Of a stretch of DNA of 7,664 nt, positions 1 through 7,664 are shown piece by piece (the first letter of the stretch is position 1; the number at the start of each line of letters is the position of its first letter). Both the position numbers and the translations under genes were made by a program. A model generated the notes under the pieces. It was not told the origin of the DNA. It did not search any database and saw only the letters and a list, made by a program, of their open reading frames with translations. Source of the stretch: a virus (taxonomy: Duplodnaviria; Heunggongvirae; Uroviricota; Caudoviricetes). The DNA is taken from the IMG/VR virus record IMGVR_UViG_2537562019_000010; one strand, written 5' to 3'.

Positions 1-141
1 CGACTGTTCAACGACTGTCGCTGTTTTTTTCGCATCACTTTCCGTACCGGAAAAATGACGCCTGACTCTGGCCATCTGCTCGTCAAATCTGGCCGCATCC
101 AGACTCAAATCAACGACCAGATCGCCTACCGGTTCAGCCAT
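1..141 (-). CDS. H: Tail tape-measure protein H, N-terminal fragment (gene continues past window start)
   Basis: Minus-strand translation from ATG at 139-141 reads MAEPVGDLVVDLSLDAARFDEQMARVRRHFSGTESDAKKTATVVEQS, which matches my recollection of the lambda gpH N-terminus. The start overlaps the T stop (ATGGCTGA), as in lambda. Too short in-window to appear in the ORF track. Confidence 0.78.
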   Translation of the reverse strand, partial: MAEPVGDLVVDLSLDAARFDEQMARVRRHFSGTESDAKKTATVVEQS

Positions 142-568
142 ACCGGACTCCTCCTGCGATCCCTTCTGATACTGTCATCAGCATTACGTCATCCTCCGTC
201 ATGTCCGCCACATCCGGGGAAGCGGGGATAACTTCATTCCCGTCCGGGCCAAAGCGGACGCCTCCGGCAAGCCCTGCCGCTTTCTGCATCAGCACATCAT
301 CTTCAGGCTCTTCGTCAGCCTCGCGCCGGTTCAGCAGACTGAAATCCAGCGGATGCATATCCGGATCGCTGAAAAACAGGCTGAGTACGGTGTACGTCAG
401 CCCGGAAAAGTGCATATCCAGCAGAACATCATGAAAATAATGGGTACTGTAAAAGCGGTGCCAGTCGGCATACTCCGTGGATGACATCCCGGCAAGCATG
501 GCACGCCAGTCGGGTCGCCCCATCTCACGCGCCAGTTTCAGGGCAAAACTCAGCTCACCATCGAACAC
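134..568 (-). CDS. T: Tail assembly chaperone T reading frame (normally made only as a G-T fusion by -1 ribosomal frameshift)
   Basis: ORF track 134..568 (144 aa), MFDGELSFALKLAREMGRPDWRAMLAGMSSTEYADWHRFY..., near-identical to recalled lambda gpT. The apparent GTG 'start' at 566-568 is simply the first codon after the slippery site, not an independent initiation site. Confidence 0.85.
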   Translation of the reverse strand: MFDGELSFALKLAREMGRPDWRAMLAGMSSTEYADWHRFYSTHYFHDVLLDMHFSGLTYTVLSLFFSDPDMHPLDFSLLNRREADEEPEDDVLMQKAAGLAGGVRFGPDGNEVIPASPDVADMTEDDVMLMTVSEGIAGGVRYG

Positions 569-970
569 TTTCCCGCAGAAACAGGCTCTGCAGGCCCGGC
601 GTCCTCTGCCTGTTCAGGAGCATCATTCACAACAAACTCAGACATACCGGACAGACGCACACCACATTTTCAGCATGAGAAATTGCCTCCGTGGGCCAGG
701 TGGTAAGCACTTCCTGCTCAATCTGTTTAACGGCTTCATTCATGGAAGGCAGCTTTGTCTTCTGCGGATGGTTATGCCACAGGGACATCGCCACCAGAAA
801 AGCACCGGTTCTGACGAGTCTTCCACACTAAACTTCCGGTTGCTGTCTGACTCCGCCTGTTCTGCCTGCCGTTTCATCAGGGCGAGATGCTCAATACGCT
901 GCAGGGCTGACAGTTCAGAAAGCGTGACGGTCACACCGTTATGTTCAAATGATTCGGTTTTCAGGAACAT
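550..970 (-). pseudogene. G: Tail assembly chaperone G, apparently disrupted by two 1-bp deletions
   Basis: ORF track 740..970 (76 aa) begins MFLKTESFEHNGVTVTLSELSALQRIEHLALMKRQAEQAESDSNRKF (lambda gpG N-terminus), then diverges and stops at 740. The recognisable gpG sequence continues in a second frame (RTGAFLVAMSLWHNHPQK...AISHAENVV) and then a third (RLSGM.EFVVN.APEQ.EDAGPAEPVSAGK) to a stop at 550. G start to T start is 402 nt (same frame), where the G/T architecture needs 404 nt (T in the -1 frame). Confidence 0.72.
568..574 (-). promoter_or_regulatory. Programmed -1 ribosomal frameshift slippery heptamer GGGAAAG (G to G-T)
   Basis: Minus-strand sequence reads ...GCG GGA AAG TGT TCG..., with GGGAAAG immediately 5' of the first T-frame codon. 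This is the classic lambda G/T slippery site and position. Confidence 0.6.
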
Positions 971-985
971 CGCTGACTCTCCGGA

Positions 986-1726
986 TTAACTGGCGGTGAC
1001 GTTGATTTCTGCAACCGCAGCAAGTTCACCATTACCGGATACGACCGGAATGTTGACCTTGCCTGCAGCAACACCTTTCACGGTGATGGTCATACCACTG
1101 ACCGACACGGTGGCTTTTGTTTTATCCGCAGACACCGCACGGAAGCTCTTGTCGGTTGCGCCTTCCGGCTGGAATGCCACGGTCAGCGTGGTGCTCTGCC
1201 CTTTCACCACCGAAGTGCTGGCAGGCGTCACGGTCATGCCGGTTGCCGCTGTTACCGTGCTGCGATCTTCTGCCATCGACGGACGTCCCACGTTGGTGAC
1301 TTTCACCGTGCGGGTGATCACTTCCTTCGCCGTCACCGCCTTACCGATACTGCTGACCCAGCCGCGGAACACATCGACCGTGCCGTTCGGGAAGCGGATT
1401 TTATAGGCACGGGTATCCCCTTCATTAAACCACGCCAGCAGCGCCTGCTGCCCCTGCTCTCCGGGCATCCACGCCAGCGTGAAGCTGGTATCTCCGGCAG
1501 ATTTCTGCCCCTGCCCGGTCGCAGTCCAGTCCGCATCTTCATCATCGAGATAGCTGTCGTCATAGGACTCAGCGGTCAGTTCGCCGGGCGTCAGGTCTTT
1601 AACCTTTGCCAGACGCGACCAGTCAACGTCTGAAAGCGGGTTCGCATAAGGGTCACCGCTCCCGTTATAAACCCACAGTGTGGTCCCGGCCCCTTTCACC
1701 GGTGCCAGAGGATTTGGTGTTGGCAT
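986..1726 (-). CDS. V: Major tail tube protein V (246 aa) with C-terminal Ig-like domain
   Basis: ORF track 986..1756. Lambda gpV homology begins at [20 protein letters not shown]..., so the start is placed at the ATG at 1724-1726, preceded by GAGGA. Length is 246 aa as in lambda. The C-terminal ~90 aa look like the Ig-like domain ([52 protein letters not shown]). Confidence 0.9.
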
Positions 1727-1733
1727 ATCGTCC

Positions 1734-2129
1734 TCACATTTCATAGGTAATGACATAAGTCAGATCGGCTGAACTCCACAGGCCCGCATCATCGTCGCGC
1801 CGGTAGTCATAGCCACTGGCCACCATACTGGTGATCAAATCTGACAGTGCCGGGATATCGCTCATCACCGGATAAATCCGGGACTCCATCCACGAATCCA
1901 GCTCTGAATCCGGCACCTGAGCAGGCAGGAAAACTTCAATATGCAGCTCCGCCTGCCAGGTATCGCTGTCCAGCTCTTCGCCCGTGTATTCAGCGCCGGT
2001 GAGATAAACGGCAATTGCCGGAAAATCTTCCTCATCAAAAACAGCGGGGCGACCATCAAAAAGCGTCGCCCCGGTGTCATGCTTCTCCAGTGCATCCAGT
2101 ACGGCTGCACGGAGTTCAGTATGTTTCAT
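1734..2129 (-). CDS. U: Tail tube terminator protein U
   Basis: ORF track 1734..2129 (131 aa), [22 protein letters not shown]...LTYVITYEM, lambda gpU length and sequence. The start ATG overlaps the Z stop (ATGA at 2126-2129). Confidence 0.9.
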
Positions 2130-2704
2130 CGCTTTATTACCATTCTCAGTTGATGCTGCAGCGCATAGCCCAGCTCTTTCGGAAGACGTTCACGCCGTAT
2201 CCGTTCAATATTCTGTTTAAACGCCGTGGTAAGCGGCACCGCCATCGGGATTTTCACCACATCAATGGGGTAACGGTTTTTCCCGGCCACACGCTGCATG
2301 ACATGCCACCGGCCATTTTTCAGTTGCTGAATAAACGCGCCGGGAATACGACGGTTTCCCACCACAAGCACGCTGCCGCCACCTTTCAGGGATGAACGCT
2401 GCCCCTTTTTACGACGTCTGCGGCGGGAAAGGACAACCCGCGCGTTACCCAGCCTGATTACGGGCAAATCCCCCCGGTTAACCCTGATTCTGGCCTGCGG
2501 ATTTTTGACCGTGGCCCTTTTCAGCCTGGCCCTTTCCTTTACCAGTTTCCGGCGTACCTTTGTCTCACGGGCAACCTGTGCCGCCGACTGCGATATCGCG
2601 GATGAAGCAACGCGGTTAATGGCCATTGCTGACGCACCGGGCACCGCCGTTCTGCTGATACGGCTGAGGTTTTCAACAGCCTGCTCAAGACCTTTTATGG
2701 CCAT
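2126..2704 (-). CDS. Z: Tail completion protein Z
   Basis: ORF track 2126..2704 (192 aa), MAIKGLEQAVENLSRISRTAVPGA...[10 protein letters not shown], matches lambda gpZ in length and sequence. Confidence 0.9.
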   Translation of the reverse strand: MAIKGLEQAVENLSRISRTAVPGASAMAINRVASSAISQSAAQVARETKVRRKLVKERARLKRATVKNPQARIRVNRGDLPVIRLGNARVVLSRRRRRKKGQRSSLKGGGSVLVVGNRRIPGAFIQQLKNGRWHVMQRVAGKNRYPIDVVKIPMAVPLTTAFKQNIERIRRERLPKELGYALQHQLRMVIKR

Positions 2705-2715
2705 ACATCCCCCTT

Positions 2716-3069
2716 TCAGCGGCGACGGTTAACGGCAGGCGGTACGCCCCGTCCAAGCCAGAGATGACAGCTTCCGCCATCATCCGGCGTAACCCGGTCC
2801 ACCCAGAAGTTTTCCTCGCCGATGGTCAGTGTGTCTCCACGCCGCAGCTGCCGCACATCATCAGTCCGGACAAACAGGGACGGGCTGGAGCCTTCAACGC
2901 GCACCCCCTGTCCGGCATAGCTGATATTTTCAGGGTCATCAAAAACACCACGTATCACAGCACCGGACAGCTCACCGGATGTCATGGTGGCTGACGTTCC
3001 CATGTACCCGCGTATCGTTTCATCGGCGCGGGCAATGGCAGCATCGAACAGGTTATCGGAATCAGCCAC
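2716..3069 (-). CDS. FII: Head-tail joining protein FII
   Basis: ORF track 2716..3069 (117 aa), MADSDNLFDAAIARADETIRGYMGTSAT...HLWLGRGVPPAVNRRR, lambda gpFII length and sequence. Confidence 0.9.
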   Translation of the reverse strand: MADSDNLFDAAIARADETIRGYMGTSATMTSGELSGAVIRGVFDDPENISYAGQGVRVEGSSPSLFVRTDDVRQLRRGDTLTIGEENFWVDRVTPDDGGSCHLWLGRGVPPAVNRRR

Positions 3070-3080
3070 AGCGCCTCCCG

Positions 3081-3479
3081 TTATTGCATTCTGGCCAGGC
3101 CACGTTCTGTCATTTCGGCTGCCACACCGGCAGAGACACGAAACGCCGTTCCCGGCAGCACAAATGCCACAGGTTTATCCCGCGTGGCGTGAAGTGCATC
3201 AGTATGCAGCGTCACCAGTGCCACGACCGTGACCAGTTCAGCCGTATCCTGAATCACGGTATCCGGCTGCGCTGATATCACCTCATTTTCATGCCCGGTC
3301 AGCACATTTTCCCGGCTGAGAGGGGTGTCCTGACCGGCAGTTTCATCCGTGTCATCAAGCTCTTCTTCCAGCTCTGCCACACGAAGCGCCAGTTCTTCTT
3401 TCGTTCCCGTCAAACTGATATCGCGGTTCAGTTGCTCACCCAGCTCCTGAAGACGGGCAATCAGTTCATCTTTCGTCAT
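3081..3479 (-). CDS. FI: DNA packaging / head assembly protein FI
   Basis: ORF track 3081..3518, trimmed to the internal ATG (MTKDELIARLQELGEQLNRD...) that matches the lambda gpFI start (132 aa) and is preceded by a strong GGAGGAG RBS. The longer upstream start would lie inside the E/FI hairpin. Confidence 0.86.
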   Translation of the reverse strand: MTKDELIARLQELGEQLNRDISLTGTKEELALRVAELEEELDDTDETAGQDTPLSRENVLTGHENEVISAQPDTVIQDTAELVTVVALVTLHTDALHATRDKPVAFVLPGTAFRVSAGVAAEMTERGLARMQ

Positions 3480-3500
3480 GAACTCCTCCACAGAGAGAAA

Positions 3501-3518
3501 ATGGCCCCGAAGGGCCAT
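3501..3518 (-). terminator. Intergenic stem-loop (7-bp GC-rich stem, UUCG tetraloop on the transcript) just 3' of E, followed by a U/C-rich tract
   Basis: Plus-strand ATGGCCC-CGAA-GGGCCAT is a perfect inverted repeat. On the minus-strand transcript it is AUGGCCC-UUCG-GGGCCAU followed by UUUCUCUCUG and then the FI RBS. Function (partial terminator, RNA stabiliser or attenuator) is inferred. Confidence 0.4.
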
Positions 3519-3520
3519 GA

Positions 3521-4546
3521 TTACGCCAGTTGAACGGACACGAACTCATCAGGATCAGCCAGCAGCATCAGCGGTGCTGACTGAATCATGGTGAACTCAC
3601 GCGCCGGATCGCCGGTGGTCACCCAGTTTTTCGGGTAACGGGCAGAGGCGTTAATGCCTTCGCGCTGTGCGTCCGCATCCTGAATGCAGCCATAGGTGCG
3701 CAGACCGCGAGCCTGAGTGTTCCCCAGCACCATCGTGTTGTCCGGCAGGAAGTTCTTTTTGACGCCGTTTTCCACGTACTGTCCGGAATACACGACGATG
3801 GCCACATCGCCATACATTCCCTTATAGGACACCGCTTTGCCCAGGTCTTTTACCGCTGTCTCCAGCTCGGAATGAGAGCCGCGACGGGTATCCAGCTTCT
3901 CCTTGACGGCTTTGAAGGAACGGAACAGCGCCCAGCCTTTCGGATCAAACACGATGATATTCACCACACCGCTGGCGTTCAGCGCGTAGGCTTCGATATC
4001 GTCGGTCGGGTCATACGTGGACTTGTCGCGCTTGCTCCACCCCGTGCCGCCGGACTGCGTGATGTTATTCGCCGCACTGCGGCCCATATCCACCTCAACC
4101 GGATCGAAGGCTTCACCGGTCATGGTGTATTTGCCCTTAAGCACGGCAGAAACTGCCTGCATCTCTTCGACCTGGGCAATCGCCAGATTTTCGTCACGCA
4201 TGTTCTGCAGGATAATACGGCGACGACGGTAAGCCGGGTCCGCCAGATTCTGCGGATCTTCATCCGGCAGGCGACGCAGGGTCATCTGCGGATTCACCTC
4301 ATGCTTGGGTTTGACATATCCCGGCGTAAATTCAGAGGTGGAGCCGCCACGGGAACGGATAACCTCACCGGAAACAATCGGCGAAACGTACAGCGCCATG
4401 TTTACCAGTCCAGGAATTTGTGAGAGATAGACTTTCTCCGTGGTGAAAGGATAGGTTTCACGGAAAAACAGGCGCAGAAACAGCGGATCGAACTTAAAGT
4501 GATGCTGGGTCGATGCCAGTAATTCTGCAGTTGTATATACAGACAT
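3521..4546 (-). CDS. E: Major capsid protein E (HK97 fold family)
   Basis: ORF track 3521..4546 (341 aa), MSVYTTAELLASTQHHFKFDPLFLRLFFRETYPFTTEKVYLSQIPGLVNMALYVSPIVSGE...DEFVSVQLA, lambda gpE length and near-identical sequence. Confidence 0.95.
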   Translation of the reverse strand: MSVYTTAELLASTQHHFKFDPLFLRLFFRETYPFTTEKVYLSQIPGLVNMALYVSPIVSGEVIRSRGGSTSEFTPGYVKPKHEVNPQMTLRRLPDEDPQNLADPAYRRRRIILQNMRDENLAIAQVEEMQAVSAVLKGKYTMTGEAFDPVEVDMGRSAANNITQSGGTGWSKRDKSTYDPTDDIEAYALNASGVVNIIVFDPKGWALFRSFKAVKEKLDTRRGSHSELETAVKDLGKAVSYKGMYGDVAIVVYSGQYVENGVKKNFLPDNTMVLGNTQARGLRTYGCIQDADAQREGINASARYPKNWVTTGDPAREFTMIQSAPLMLLADPDEFVSVQLA

Positions 4547-4555
4547 AAATTATTT

Positions 4556-4583
4556 CCATAAAAAAAGCCGCACAGGCGGCCTT
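4556..4583 (-). terminator. Intergenic hairpin plus T-run between D stop and E start (intrinsic-terminator-like)
   Basis: Minus-strand reads AAAGGCCGC-CUGU-GCGGC followed by a run of at least 7 U, then the E start region. A GC stem plus U-tract is intrinsic-terminator-like. Coordinates approximate. Confidence 0.4.
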
Positions 4584-4601
4584 TGTTGATGAAGGGGAAG
4601 A

Positions 4602-4934
4602 TTAAACGATGCTGATTGCCGTTCCGGCAAACGCGGTCCGTTTTTTCGTCTCGTCGCTGGCAGCCTCCGGCCAGAGCACATCCTCATAACGGAACGTGCC
4701 GGACTTGTAGAACGTCAGTGTGGTGCTGGTCTGGTCAGCAGCAACTGCAAGAATGCCAACGGCAGCACCGTCGGTGGTGCCATCCCACGCAACCAGCTTA
4801 CGGGTGGAGGTGTCCAGCATCAGCGGGGTCATTGCAGGCGCTTTCGCACTCAACCCGCCGGGCGCGGTTGCGGTATGAGCCGGGTCACTGTTGCCCAGCG
4901 GCTGGTAATGGGTAAAGGTTTCTTTGCTCGTCAT
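4602..4934 (-). CDS. D: Head decoration protein D
   Basis: ORF track 4602..4940. Lambda gpD homology begins at the second Met ([27 protein letters not shown]...AGTAISIV, 110 aa), with AAGGGA upstream. Confidence 0.9.
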
Positions 4935-4943
4935 AAACATCCC

Positions 4944-5549
4944 TTACACTGGTGTGTTCAGCAAATCGTTAACGGCATCAGATGCCGGGTTACCTGCAGC
5001 CAGCGGTGCCGGTGTACCCTGCATCAGACGATCCAGCGCAGTGTCACTGCGCGCCTGTGCACTCTGTGGTGCTGCAGCCAGAATGCGGCGGGCCGTTTCC
5101 ACGGTCATTCCGGGGGTTTCTGCCAGAACGCGCGCCTGTTCTTCGCGTCCGTGAGCCTCCTCACAGTTGAGGATCCCCATAATGCGGCTGTTTTCTGCCG
5201 CAACCGCAGCGGTGATCTGCGCGTTCACGTCCGGCTGCGCCGCGCTGGCGTTTTCGCCCTCCGTCGCTGGCACCACGTCAGTAACGTCAGCCTGCGAAGC
5301 AGTGGCTGAAACAGTTGTTGATTGAGTCTCTTTGGTCATTCGCCCTCCTGAGAGACGGGATTTATGTGCATCCAGTGCATCACGCATGACGGTGATCGCA
5401 TCGGTGCTGTTAACAAGTTCATCAGCCAGTCCGGCATCAATGGCCTCCTGACCGCTGTACACTGCAGCCTCGGTATCCAGCACAGCCTGCACAGACAGGC
5501 CGGTATATGCCGACACCTTCTGCGCAAACATCCGGCGGGTTGCGTCCAT
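4944..5549 (-). CDS. Nu3: Capsid scaffolding protein Nu3 (in-frame internal start within C; shares the C-terminal 201 aa)
   Basis: Internal Met in the C frame (MDATRRMFAQKVSAYTGLSVQ...) gives a 201-aa product, the same nested arrangement and length as lambda Nu3. Coordinates derived by frame arithmetic from the C stop. Confidence 0.72.
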   Translation of the reverse strand: MDATRRMFAQKVSAYTGLSVQAVLDTEAAVYSGQEAIDAGLADELVNSTDAITVMRDALDAHKSRLSGGRMTKETQSTTVSATASQADVTDVVPATEGENASAAQPDVNAQITAAVAAENSRIMGILNCEEAHGREEQARVLAETPGMTVETARRILAAAPQSAQARSDTALDRLMQGTPAPLAAGNPASDAVNDLLNTPV

Positions 5550-6263
5550 CCGGGACTGCAGTGTCTCCCGGACGTCATCCGGAAGATGGCTGTAAGGATT
5601 GCCATCCACCTTATGGCTGCCGCTGTAAATCAGCGTGATTTCCACGCCCTGTTTCTCCAGGGCAGCACCGTAATTACTGTGAGCCATCATGACGCCGATG
5701 GAGCCTGTCCGGGCGGTCTGCGTGACCAGACGCCGGGAGGCGGCGCTGGCAAGCAGCTGACCTGCACTGCAGTTCATGTCGTTGGCCAGCGCCCATACCG
5801 GTTTTATGTCTCGCACACGGGCGATGATGTCAGCACAGTCAAATGCTCCCGCCACCATCCCGCCCGGTGTGTCCATATCCAGCAGAATGCCGTCCACCAT
5901 CGGATCGCTGGCAGCCTGTTGCAGACGGGCGATAATGCCGTTGTAACCGGTCATCCCCGAATACGGCTGCAGCGCCCGCGTCCGGCTGACCAGCGTGCCG
6001 GACACCGGCAGCACGGCGATGCCGTTCATGACCTGATAACTGCGGGCCTGTCGTGGTCCGTCATCATCACCGGATAACGCCAGCGGCGCGGGTGCCTCTC
6101 CGGCAGTCAGGCTGTCGCCGGACACCGCATCCGTCAGGCGGCTGATCCCAAGCTGGCCTGCAAGCGCACAAAAGAAAACCCGCGCATAGGCGGGTTCAAG
6201 CATCAGCGGCTCATTAAAGGCCATGCTGGCAATATGCGGGAGATTACGCAGCTCTGCTGTCAC
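4944..6263 (-). CDS. C: Capsid assembly / prohead protease C (S49 family)
   Basis: ORF track 4944..6398 is a long open frame. Lambda gpC homology (TAELRNLPHIASMAFNEPLMLEPAYARVFF...) begins at a GTG at 6261-6263, preceded by GGAGGAG, giving 439 aa as in lambda. The extra upstream codons are out-of-frame read-through of the B 3' end. The C start overlaps the B stop by 20 nt, as in lambda. Confidence 0.85.
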   Translation of the reverse strand: MTAELRNLPHIASMAFNEPLMLEPAYARVFFCALAGQLGISRLTDAVSGDSLTAGEAPAPLALSGDDDGPRQARSYQVMNGIAVLPVSGTLVSRTRALQPYSGMTGYNGIIARLQQAASDPMVDGILLDMDTPGGMVAGAFDCADIIARVRDIKPVWALANDMNCSAGQLLASAASRRLVTQTARTGSIGVMMAHSNYGAALEKQGVEITLIYSGSHKVDGNPYSHLPDDVRETLQSRMDATRRMFAQKVSAYTGLSVQAVLDTEAAVYSGQEAIDAGLADELVNSTDAITVMRDALDAHKSRLSGGRMTKETQSTTVSATASQADVTDVVPATEGENASAAQPDVNAQITAAVAAENSRIMGILNCEEAHGREEQARVLAETPGMTVETARRILAAAPQSAQARSDTALDRLMQGTPAPLAAGNPASDAVNDLLNTPV

Positions 6264-7664
6264 TCTTCTCCTCCTCTGTTGATTGTCGCAGTCCGGATTC
6301 AAATGTCGCTGCCGCCCAGGCGGGCGGTTTAAGACCGGCTGCGCGGCGCTCCATCGTTTCACGGACCTGCTGGGCAAAAATTTCCTGATAGTCGTCACCG
6401 CGTTTTGCGCACTCTTTCTCGTAGGTACTCAGTCCGGCTTCTATCAGCATCACCGCTTCCTGTACTTCTTTCAGACCATCGATGGCCATACGACCGGAGC
6501 CTATCCAGTCGCAGTTCCCCCAGGCACTGCGGGCTTCCTGAAAACTGAAGCGCGCTTTTGAAGGTAACGTCACCACGCGGCGAACGATGGCCTCTTCCAG
6601 CCAGCACAGAAACATCTGGCTCGCCTGACGGGATGCGACGAATTTTCGCCGCCCCATAAAGTACGCCCAGACTCGTTCGCACTGGCCCGTGCCGTGGAGT
6701 AGCTCATCTGGGCGTAATTCCGGGAAAGCTGCTCATACGAGACACCCAGCCCGGCAGCGATATACCGCAACAGTGACTGCTCAAACACGGAGTAGCCGTT
6801 ATCCGTGTCCTGAGCCGTCTGCAGGTTCAGTGAGTCCCCCGGCATCAGGTGCGGCACTTTTGCGCCTCCCAGCGGACCGGTGCGCGGCGTAATACGCGGC
6901 AATTTCACCAATCCAGCCGGTCAGCTTGTCCCGCTGCTCCTGACTGTTCGCGCCCAGAATAAAATCCATCGCTGACTGCGTATCCAGCTCACTTTCAATG
7001 GTGGCGGCATACATCGCCTTCACAATGGCGCTCTGCAGCTGCGTGTTCTGCAGCGTGTCGAGCATCTTCATCTGCTCCATCACGCTGTAAAACACATTTG
7101 CACCGCGAGTCTGCCCGTCCTCCACGGGTTCAAAAACGTGAATGAACGAGGCGCGCCCGCCGGGTAACTCACGGGGTATCCATGTCCATTTCTGCGGCAT
7201 CCAGCCAGGATACCCGTCCTCGCTGACGTAATATCCCAGCGCCGCGCCGCTGTCATTAATCTGCACACCGGCACGGCAGTTCCGGCTGTCGCCGGTATTG
7301 TTCGGGTTGCTGATGCGCTTCGGGCTGACCATCCGGAACTGTGTCCGGAACAGCCGCGACGAACTGGTATCCCAGGTGGCCTGAACGAACAGTTCACCGT
7401 TAAAGGCGTGCATGGCCACACCTTCCCGAATCATCATGGTAAACGTGCGTTTTCGCTCAACGTCAATGCAGCAGCAGTCATCCTCGGCAAACTCTTTCCA
7501 TGCCGCTTCAACCTCGCGGGAAAAGGCACGGGCGTCTTCCTCCCCGATGCCCAGATAGCGCCAGCTTGGACGATGACTGAGCCGGAAAAAAGACCCGACG
7601 ATATGATCCTGATGCAGCTGGATGGCGTTGGCGGCATAGCCGTTATTGCGTACCAGATCGTCTG
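6244..7664 (-). pseudogene. B: Portal protein B, 3' ~1.4 kb (5' end beyond window), apparently interrupted by two compensating frameshifts
   Basis: Three consecutive ORF-track pieces together match recalled lambda gpB in order. 6799..7664 (open to the window edge; FRLSHRPSWRYLG...IPRELPGGRASFIHVFEPVEDGQTRGANVFYSVMEQMKMLDTLQNTQLQSAIVKAMYAATIESELDT...) stops at 6799. 6570..6911 is in a second frame (...GGAKVPHLMPGDSLNLQTAQDTDNGYSVFEQSLLRYIAAGLGVSYEQLSR...ARASANES). 6244..6657 is back in the first frame (MGRRKFVASRQASQMFLCWLEE...MAIDGLKEVQEAVMLIEAGLSTYEKE...). Confidence 0.8.

Follow-up and report, generated by a model that had tools for sequence, protein, structure and literature searches.

Gene content of the window

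The window, that is, the whole 7,664-nt stretch of DNA analyzed here, is the entire contig APXB01000065.1 (7,664 bp) of assembly GCA_000356365.2 from the ETEC strain E. coli 179550. On its minus strand it carries the lambda module B–C/Nu3–D–E–FI–FII–Z–U–V–G–T–H′ (H being cut), with the contig termini falling inside B and H. Compared to lambda (J02459, 3014–10682), coverage was 100% and nucleotide identity 96.8% over the whole window; collinear gene order, high identity, and the agreement of gene calls with Pfam families mark the region as a lambda-like (Lambdavirus-type) module. Order, lengths, overlaps, and the G/T slippery site are all as in the lambda head–tail module, and the 241 substitutions between the two are of the ordinary lambdoid mosaic type. 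What sets the window apart from lambda are five deletions of 1 nt each, located in B and G and common to no relative. The genes and the frameshift signal are as follows (basis of the assignment in brackets where recorded):

1–141, minus strand: H, tape-measure gene, 5′ end with start; cut by the contig end (gene call, lambda annotation)
134–568, minus strand: T, open frame of 144 aa, intact; extends G in the −1 frame to give gpGT (gene call, lambda annotation)
568–574, minus strand: slippery heptamer GGGAAAG of the G/T programmed −1 frameshift, intact (sequence read directly)
550–970, minus strand: G, tail assembly chaperone, 421 nt vs. 423 expected; as written, a 76-aa product (740–970)
986–1726, minus strand: V, major tail protein, 246 aa, intact (lambda annotation, gene call)
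1734–2129, minus strand: U, 131 aa, intact (lambda annotation, gene call)
2126–2704, minus strand: Z, 192 aa, intact (lambda annotation, gene call)
2716–3069, minus strand: FII, 117 aa, intact (lambda annotation, gene call)
3081–3479, minus strand: FI, 132 aa, intact (lambda annotation, gene call)
3521–4546, minus strand: E, major capsid protein, 341 aa, intact (gene call)
4602–4934, minus strand: D, head decoration protein, 110 aa, intact (lambda annotation, gene call)
4944–6263, minus strand: C, protease/scaffold gene, 439 aa, intact, with Nu3 nested at 4944–5549 (lambda annotation, gene call)
6244–7664, minus strand: B, portal gene, its first 178 nt beyond the contig end; interrupted by three 1-nt deletions

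Gene calls set against the lambda annotation bore out the first-pass observation that all genes other than B and G keep lambda-like lengths: C, D, E, FI, FII, Z, U, V, and T have the amino acid lengths of their lambda counterparts, and the start of H is present. The heptamer GGGAAAG, which we take from established knowledge of lambda G/GT to be the G/T slippery site, is followed by an open T frame. The exact T protein occurs on >1000 contigs, the exact C protein on no other contig in the collection, and E carries one private non-synonymous change at position 4041 (codon 169, GAG to GGG).

Single-nucleotide deletions in B and G

Three comparisons, namely global alignment with lambda (J02459) and PhiR11_1, BLAST maps covering 85 relatives, and a 43-sequence multiple alignment, agreed on five private 1-nt deletions and zero insertions, two in G and three in B (no strand assigned):

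656–660: deletion number 2 in G, placement ambiguous (alignment)
814–818: deletion number 1 in G, placement ambiguous (alignment)
6669–6670: deletion in B; the lost C is invariant across all relatives (alignment)
6872–6873: deletion in B, A/C polymorphic column; the two copies of the finished genome 90-9280 differ here (L005 C, L006 A)
6883–6884: deletion in B, T/G polymorphic column; the 90-9280 copies differ here (L005 G, L006 T)

Read from its ATG at 970, G has 51 correct codons before the frame shifts, and a stop at 740–742 terminates its product at 76 aa. In B, the frame runs open from the contig end to a stop at 6799–6801, and its third deletion brings back the original frame (net −3), leaving a 137-aa ORF at 6244–6657. 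The first-pass annotation had located four indels in these two genes; the genes are right, the number is not, and the count of four probably came from reading two B deletions 11 nt apart as one event. Its remark that the clustering exceeds uniform expectation held up in simulation, with P = 0.024 for five events in at most two genes and, under uniform placement, P = 0.0016 for at most two clusters spanning ≤220 nt.

None of the five sites lies in a homopolymer (0/5), and models of homopolymer or methylation-motif error were rejected on this basis. The private indels of four other sequences (L044, L012, L078, and L015) are in homopolymers, unlike those of the window.

Position of the deletions relative to copy differences

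Compared to the 85 relatives, the window holds only two private substitutions (positions 18 and 4041) alongside its five deletions, a ratio with P = 1.8e-4 if indels make up 10% of mutations; the proportionate excess of private substitutions that would accompany indels in neutral decay was thus not seen. Four of the five deletions fall on polymorphic columns (minor allele seen at least twice in the panel; 9.3% of columns; P = 3.5e-4), and lesion positions are therefore not independent of paralog polymorphism, as they would be in a pseudogene.

Both G deletions lie in multi-SNP clusters. At 656–660, the h0 haplotype is GCATTACC, the main haplotype GGTACACC, and the window reads GCACACC; at 814–818, the corresponding sequences are ACGAGATC, ATGGCGTC, and ACGAGTC. 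Around both sites, h0-specific and non-h0 alleles alternate every 1–9 nt, including the adjacent bases 827 and 828. In B, 6872 and 6883 are exact L005-vs.-L006 difference sites near the edges of a copy-2-like patch, and the 6669/6670 deletion sits 17 nt inside an edge of this patch (6652–6919). Lesions at copy differences combined with haplotype switches are what a mixture of paralogs predicts, with 6669 as the exception.

Two further patterns were considered and set aside. Mosaicism as a sign of chimerism is not usable as evidence: the window resolves into 46 donor segments, which is ordinary for natural modules, as leave-one-out analysis of 43 of them gave 2–82 segments with all donors and 21–83 with near-identical donors excluded. 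Segments shorter than 10 nt were modestly enriched, at six each in the window and in L031 vs. a median of 1–2. The 1/2 pattern of alleles relative to L005 and L006, taken alone, is partly trivial at biallelic sites and is informative only when combined with the deletion positions and the almost complete lack of private alleles.

Module copies in finished genomes and sequence collections

Lambda-like modules occupy a median of two places per E. coli genome, and up to nine. The finished genome of the Bangladeshi ETEC 90-9280 (CS7-type) has three places matching the module, and both copies fetched from it (L005 and L006, from NZ_CP024240.1) are fully intact and without deletions. Judged from this relative, two or three prophages of the lambda type are probably present in strain 179550. 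The window, a contig of a short-read draft, would then derive from a region with several diverged copies per genome, as paralog mixing presupposes.

The deletions recur in none of >3,000 complete E. coli genomes, a 41-mer spanning 6872 and 6883 had no exact match in the genome_contigs, viral_contigs, and metagenome_contigs collections, and a search of 153 billion gene positions placed the truncated G protein (ENA72299.1) on this contig alone. Whether compared by protein, genome, or collection, the lesions were not reproduced in independent sequence as those of a defective prophage would be. Neither the truncated G nor the unique C protein turned up anywhere but on the NCBI contig, an independent Logan assembly of the same reads included; this carries little weight as fragmented Logan contigs would lack full genes. 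A third haplotype supplying the contig's G and Z/FII alleles was found in no genome of the lineage searched; a search for a third copy with window positions 2150–2830 reached at best 98.7% identity among 5,426 genomes.

Recurrent lesions in sister drafts

Strain 179550, a CS7 ETEC from Bangladesh (run SRR446711), was sequenced on a HiSeq 2000 with 100-bp reads and assembled with Celera Assembler (PMC5469772). The draft assembly dates to 2013.

In three drafts of the same study (strains 2875000, 2850750, and 2853500), the module shows 5, 13, and 33 small deletions, respectively. Columns at which L005 and L006 differ, 3.3% of the total, coincide exactly with 4/5, 10/13, and 23/33 of these events (P = 6e-6, 5e-13, and 8e-27). 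The drafts are hit at differing subsets of sites: at 3059, for example, the base is dropped in two drafts and called in the third. In 2875000, three deletions form an exact haplotype junction (111-DDD-222), while 7 of the 33 events in 2853500 lie >1 nt from any copy-difference site. The same class of lesion hence recurs at varying sites in drafts from one pipeline and is missing from the finished genome 90-9280. A frameshifted FI is common to the three sister assemblies, which, taken alone, could also be compatible with inheritance. The window's non-L005/L006 alleles were absent from the sister drafts, and no IMG/VR contig of strain 2875000 matched an h0-type 29-mer.

Origin of the deletions

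Taken together, these sequence comparisons point to the frameshifts in B and G being consensus errors of the draft assembly, arising from mixed reads of paralogous prophages, rather than gene inactivation (estimated probability, roughly 0.88). The co-resident prophages of 179550 would have head–tail modules 96–98% identical to one another, and 100-bp reads from several copies would have piled into a single overlap-layout-consensus contig. Where copies differ, the consensus step would sometimes output no base rather than either allele, so that 1-nt deletions would arise at columns heterozygous between paralogs, with haplotypes flipping from one column to the next nearby; the software step that drops the base is one that we infer. 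Evidence against this reading comes from the third haplotype, which was located in no genome of the lineage searched, and from the 6669 deletion, whose column is invariant in all relatives; events away from copy-difference sites are, however, also found in sister draft 2853500 (7 of 33).

Known collapsed or mixed repeats in short-read drafts resemble the window in yielding short contigs bounded inside repeated prophage genes, in placing lesions at paralog differences amid flipping haplotypes, and in recurring in sister drafts while the finished genome is free of them. The window departs from the usual errors of this kind in that a base is dropped at a two-allele column instead of being wrong or ambiguous, and we know of no description of such behavior.

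Ordinary local error or thin coverage with no link to paralogous copies, such as random base-call or indel errors in a poorly covered stretch, could produce the 6669 deletion at its invariant column, could likewise underlie the private substitutions at 18 and 4041, and would suit deletion clusters that span ≤220 nt. Non-homopolymer indels are, however, rare in Illumina reads, and all five deletions are of this type; moreover, random errors would show no enrichment at polymorphic or copy-difference columns, neither in the window nor in the three sister drafts, making this account very unlikely. The first-pass suggestion of locally poor sequence quality was thus correct in placing the error in the sequence, but plain low quality does not appear to be its cause, which would instead be the mixed reads of two or three co-resident prophages.

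That five 1-nt deletions recently cost a single lambdoid prophage of 179550 its portal (B) and chaperone (G) genes and left it defective must be regarded as highly improbable; recent inactivation of the prophage was one of the two readings offered by the first-pass annotation. The deletions do stand in the deposited sequence and truncate both genes, E. coli often harbors defective lambdoid prophages, and an unrelated sample (L004) has an apparently genuine nonsense codon in its portal gene. Yet genuine decay fits neither the scarcity of private substitutions (2 vs. 5 deletions) nor the position of four of the five lesions on polymorphic or copy-difference columns, and it leaves aside the three sister drafts with the same lesion class at varying sites and extreme copy-difference enrichment, the intact copies in finished 90-9280, and a truncated G that has no second occurrence in the gene collection. 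The cryptic prophages DLP12, Rac, and Qin of K-12 are alike insofar as their lambdoid structural genes seem interrupted. True cryptic prophages, however, bear large deletions, IS insertions, and accumulated substitutions, whereas in the window 10 of 12 genes are intact, private substitutions number two, and lesions track paralog differences.

Scarcely credible, finally, are real deletions made at mismatched heteroduplex positions as one co-resident prophage recombines with another (gene conversion): this would account for the coincidence with copy-difference sites and haplotype junctions and, if true, would make gene conversion between diverged prophages itself mutagenic and pseudogenizing, but we know of no mechanism deleting single bases at heteroduplex mismatches this often, sister strains of the same study are hit at differing sites, the finished genome has none, and in the sister with 33 events nearly every gene would be destroyed without private substitutions having accumulated.

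If the deletions are consensus output at columns where prophage copies differ, both B and G are in all likelihood intact in the underlying prophage. The further first-pass inference, made on the condition that the indels are real, of an element unable to build virions of its own consequently lacks support, for it presumes deletions that read as a consensus artefact.

Implications

The module itself would be an ordinary lambda-like one, and the interruptions of B and G biologically of no consequence. Their relevance would rather lie in the public record: at least four GenBank drafts of one 94-genome ETEC project appear to contain false frameshifts in multi-copy prophage genes, and the deposited "truncated" proteins ENA72299.1, ENA72308.1, EMV41644.1, and EMV41647.1 would be products of this process. 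Survey work relying on such drafts, whether on the intactness of prophages, pseudogene load, or the diversity of phage proteins, would therefore overcount defective prophages and unique protein variants.

Origin and gene content of the contig

Over its full length the window aligned to phage lambda (J02459, 3014–10682) at 96.8% identity in reverse orientation. It displayed all features tested for membership of the lambda morphogenesis module, of whose family it is an ordinary member. The sequence is the entire contig APXB01000065.1 (7,664 bp; NCBI assembly GCA_000356365.2) of Escherichia coli 179550, with the truncated G corresponding to ENA72299.1. According to Table S1 of Sahl et al. 2017 (PMC5469772), 179550 is a Bangladeshi enterotoxigenic (ETEC) isolate of type CS7 (APXB00000000; run SRR446711), and the methods section of that paper describes 100-bp HiSeq 2000 reads and assembly with Celera Assembler. 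In the Table S1 rows covered, MLST is 'untypable' for all seven CS7 isolates (179550, 180200, 2850750, 2851500, 2853500, 2872800, 2875000; PMC5469772), a result that could stem from a new sequence type or from housekeeping genes affected by assembly errors.

Features of the window
Minus strand: B (5′-truncated by the window end), C/Nu3, D, E, FI, FII, Z, U, V, G, T, start of H
568–574, minus strand: G/T slippery heptamer, intact
~657 and ~817: 1-nt deletions in G
740–742: stop reached by the shifted G frame
6244–6657: 137-aa ORF in the original B frame
6669/70, 6872/3 and 6883/4: 1-nt deletions in B
6799–6801: stop of the B frame, which runs open inward from the contig end

When aligned globally to lambda and the best phage hit, the window showed five single-base deletions and zero insertions. 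The first-pass annotation had counted four indels, two each in B and G; the two genes were correctly named, but B holds three deletions, two of which, 11 nt apart, were probably read as a single event. G encodes 51 correct codons before the frame shift, yielding a 76-aa product, and in B the original frame returns after the third deletion. All genes other than B and G retain lambda lengths, as previously described, and the clustering proposed earlier indeed exceeds chance under uniform placement (P = 0.024 for at most two genes; P = 0.0016 for at most two clusters spanning ≤220 nt).

Private changes relative to related modules

The comparison panel comprised 85 relatives: 80 IMG/VR loci retrieved through the E protein, lambda, PhiR11_1, a Logan locus, and two prophage copies, L005 (copy 1) and L006 (copy 2), from the finished genome of the Bangladeshi ETEC strain O114:H49 90-9280 (NZ_CP024240.1). 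Three places in that genome match the window; L005 and L006, the two that were retrieved, have no broken genes. All five deletions were private to the window (BLAST maps to the 85 relatives; 43-sequence MSA), accompanied by only two private substitutions. One, at position 18, hits the first base of codon 42 in H, and the other, at 4041, replaces Glu with Gly (GAG to GGG) at codon 169 of E, the major capsid gene; each may be genuine or one more error of the consensus. If indels constitute about a tenth of spontaneous mutations, at least five of them in a total of seven private events have a probability of 1.8e-4, and neutral decay of a dead prophage therefore fits poorly.

Matches of the G and B segments in >3,000 complete E. 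coli genomes all contained the two or three bases missing from the window, and a 41-mer across two B deletions had no match in GTDB species genomes, IMG/VR or JGI metagenomes. By exact-protein look-up, the 76-aa G product formed a singleton cluster from a single contig. The 137-aa B fragment was also present in an unrelated Logan sample, where it is produced by another kind of lesion, namely a nonsense change of TGG to TAG. In that locus (SRR28032547_203), the lambda-like portal gene carries this one in-frame change at 5148–5150 (W393*) and the remainder of the module, G included, is intact; W393* may be a true loss of the portal or one more error.

Elsewhere in the panel, private indels were of homopolymer type, unlike those of the window. 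The 1–2 nt indels of the IMG/VR relatives L044 (window positions 23, 2501), L012 (2215, 2276), L078 (7089, 7585) and L015 (2709) all lie in homopolymers of T, A or C, and this signature of error or slippage differs from that of the window. Private multi-base deletions comprised 19 nt in L082 (window ~5961–5982) and 5 nt in L021 (~5756), both frameshifting C, and an in-frame 9-nt deletion in G of L029 (~848–858).

Most deletions lie at polymorphic or copy-difference columns

Polymorphism among relatives (minor allele at least 2; MSA) was seen at four of the five deleted columns; such columns represent 9.3% of the alignment (P = 3.5e-4). Positions 6872 (C/A) and 6883 (G/T) are exact columns of difference between the co-resident 90-9280 copies. 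The three deletions in B all reside within a copy-2-like patch (6652–6919), near its edges, in copy-1-like surroundings, the rest of the B background being a clean natural haplotype. Both G deletions fall within multi-SNP clusters distinguishing the PhiR11_1-type haplotype (h0) from the common one. Near them, the contig alternates between h0-only (666, 815, 828) and non-h0 alleles (659/660, 675, 818, 827, 830) at a spacing of 1–9 nt, and even the adjacent bases 827/828 differ in haplotype. The closest natural G, among 104 panel sequences and ~6,700 places in complete genomes, was 11–12 mismatches in 451 nt away. Such column-wise haplotype flipping is a product of majority consensus over mixed reads and is not expected from homologous recombination.

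Gene C (4944–6263) encodes an intact 439-aa protein whose exact sequence occurs on no other contig in a 153-billion-gene index; the mixed consensus probably joined alleles here into a spurious combination. At 560–828 and 2189–2790, ~39 alleles are unlike L005, L006 and sister drafts of the same study. Among complete E. coli genomes, the best match to 2150–2830 reached 98.7% and the source of these alleles was not found. The G and Z/FII alleles seem to include contributions of a third haplotype, which is probably that of a third copy of the prophage.

The window looks patched together from alleles like those of L005 and L006, with frequent switching between the two, and 46 donor segments from the panel were needed to build it. 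As natural lambdoid modules required 2–82 segments in leave-one-out controls with all donors, or 21–83 with near-identical donors excluded, this fragmentation is normal and was rejected as an argument for chimerism. Very short segments (<10 nt) were enriched only modestly in the window and in the sister draft L031.

Sister drafts carry the same signature

L031, from the CS7 ETEC isolate 2875000 of the same study, harbors five private 1-nt deletions (three in FII/FI, two in C; MSA), three of which mark the exact junction of copy-1-like and copy-2-like runs (111-DDD-222). Its flanks are 100% identical to L006, and its module contains almost no allele outside the L005 and L006 set. The frameshifted FI protein recurs in drafts 2850750 (AQDO01000075.1; C, FI, FII, V and H fragmented) and 2853500 (AQDM01000075.1; W, B, C, E, FI, FII, V and G fragmented).

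Small deletion events in the module common to the drafts and their position on L005-versus-L006 columns (3.3% of columns)
2875000: 5 events; 4–5 of 5 on such columns; P = 6e-6 (for 4/5)
2850750: 13 events; 10 of 13; P = 5e-13
2853500: 33 events; 23 of 33; P = 8e-27

Hit sites vary by strain, e.g. site 3059 is missing in two drafts and normally called in the third, and taken as real, the 2853500 events would break almost all structural genes. Since the alleles of these drafts are almost entirely those of L005 and L006, yet the deletion sets differ, real mutations are implausible here; differing sets of them cannot plausibly have arisen at exactly the copy-difference sites. The artefact is systematic across the assemblies of the ETEC project. 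As seven of the 33 events in 2853500 lie >1 nt from any copy-difference site, the odd deletion of the window, at 6669, is within its behaviour.

Interpretation

We attribute the five deletions, with a probability of about 0.88, to an assembly artefact in which reads of co-resident lambda-like prophages were merged and bases lost where the copies disagree. Reads from two or three such prophages would merge into one contig terminating inside the repeated genes, and the consensus step would stochastically drop single bases at two-allele columns, a process that explains the sister-draft pattern in full. Every testable property of a paralog-mixing consensus artefact was found, and the deletions are not a real biological feature. 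Judged from sequence comparison, strain 179550 most likely has intact copies of B and G.

Poor sequence quality had been suggested before; as error independent of paralogs it is unlikely, since it would not be enriched at polymorphic columns or those at which copies differ. Recent pseudogenisation, the other earlier suggestion, is more doubtful still: the lesions were not reproduced in other sequence data, too few substitutions accompany them, and their positions depend on paralog polymorphism. Real recombination-associated deletions at mismatches, the sole novel reading not strictly contradicted by the data, are the least probable. The practical lesson is a warning about these public drafts of the ETEC study, whose multi-copy prophage regions hold false frameshifts and proteins that are only spuriously unique.
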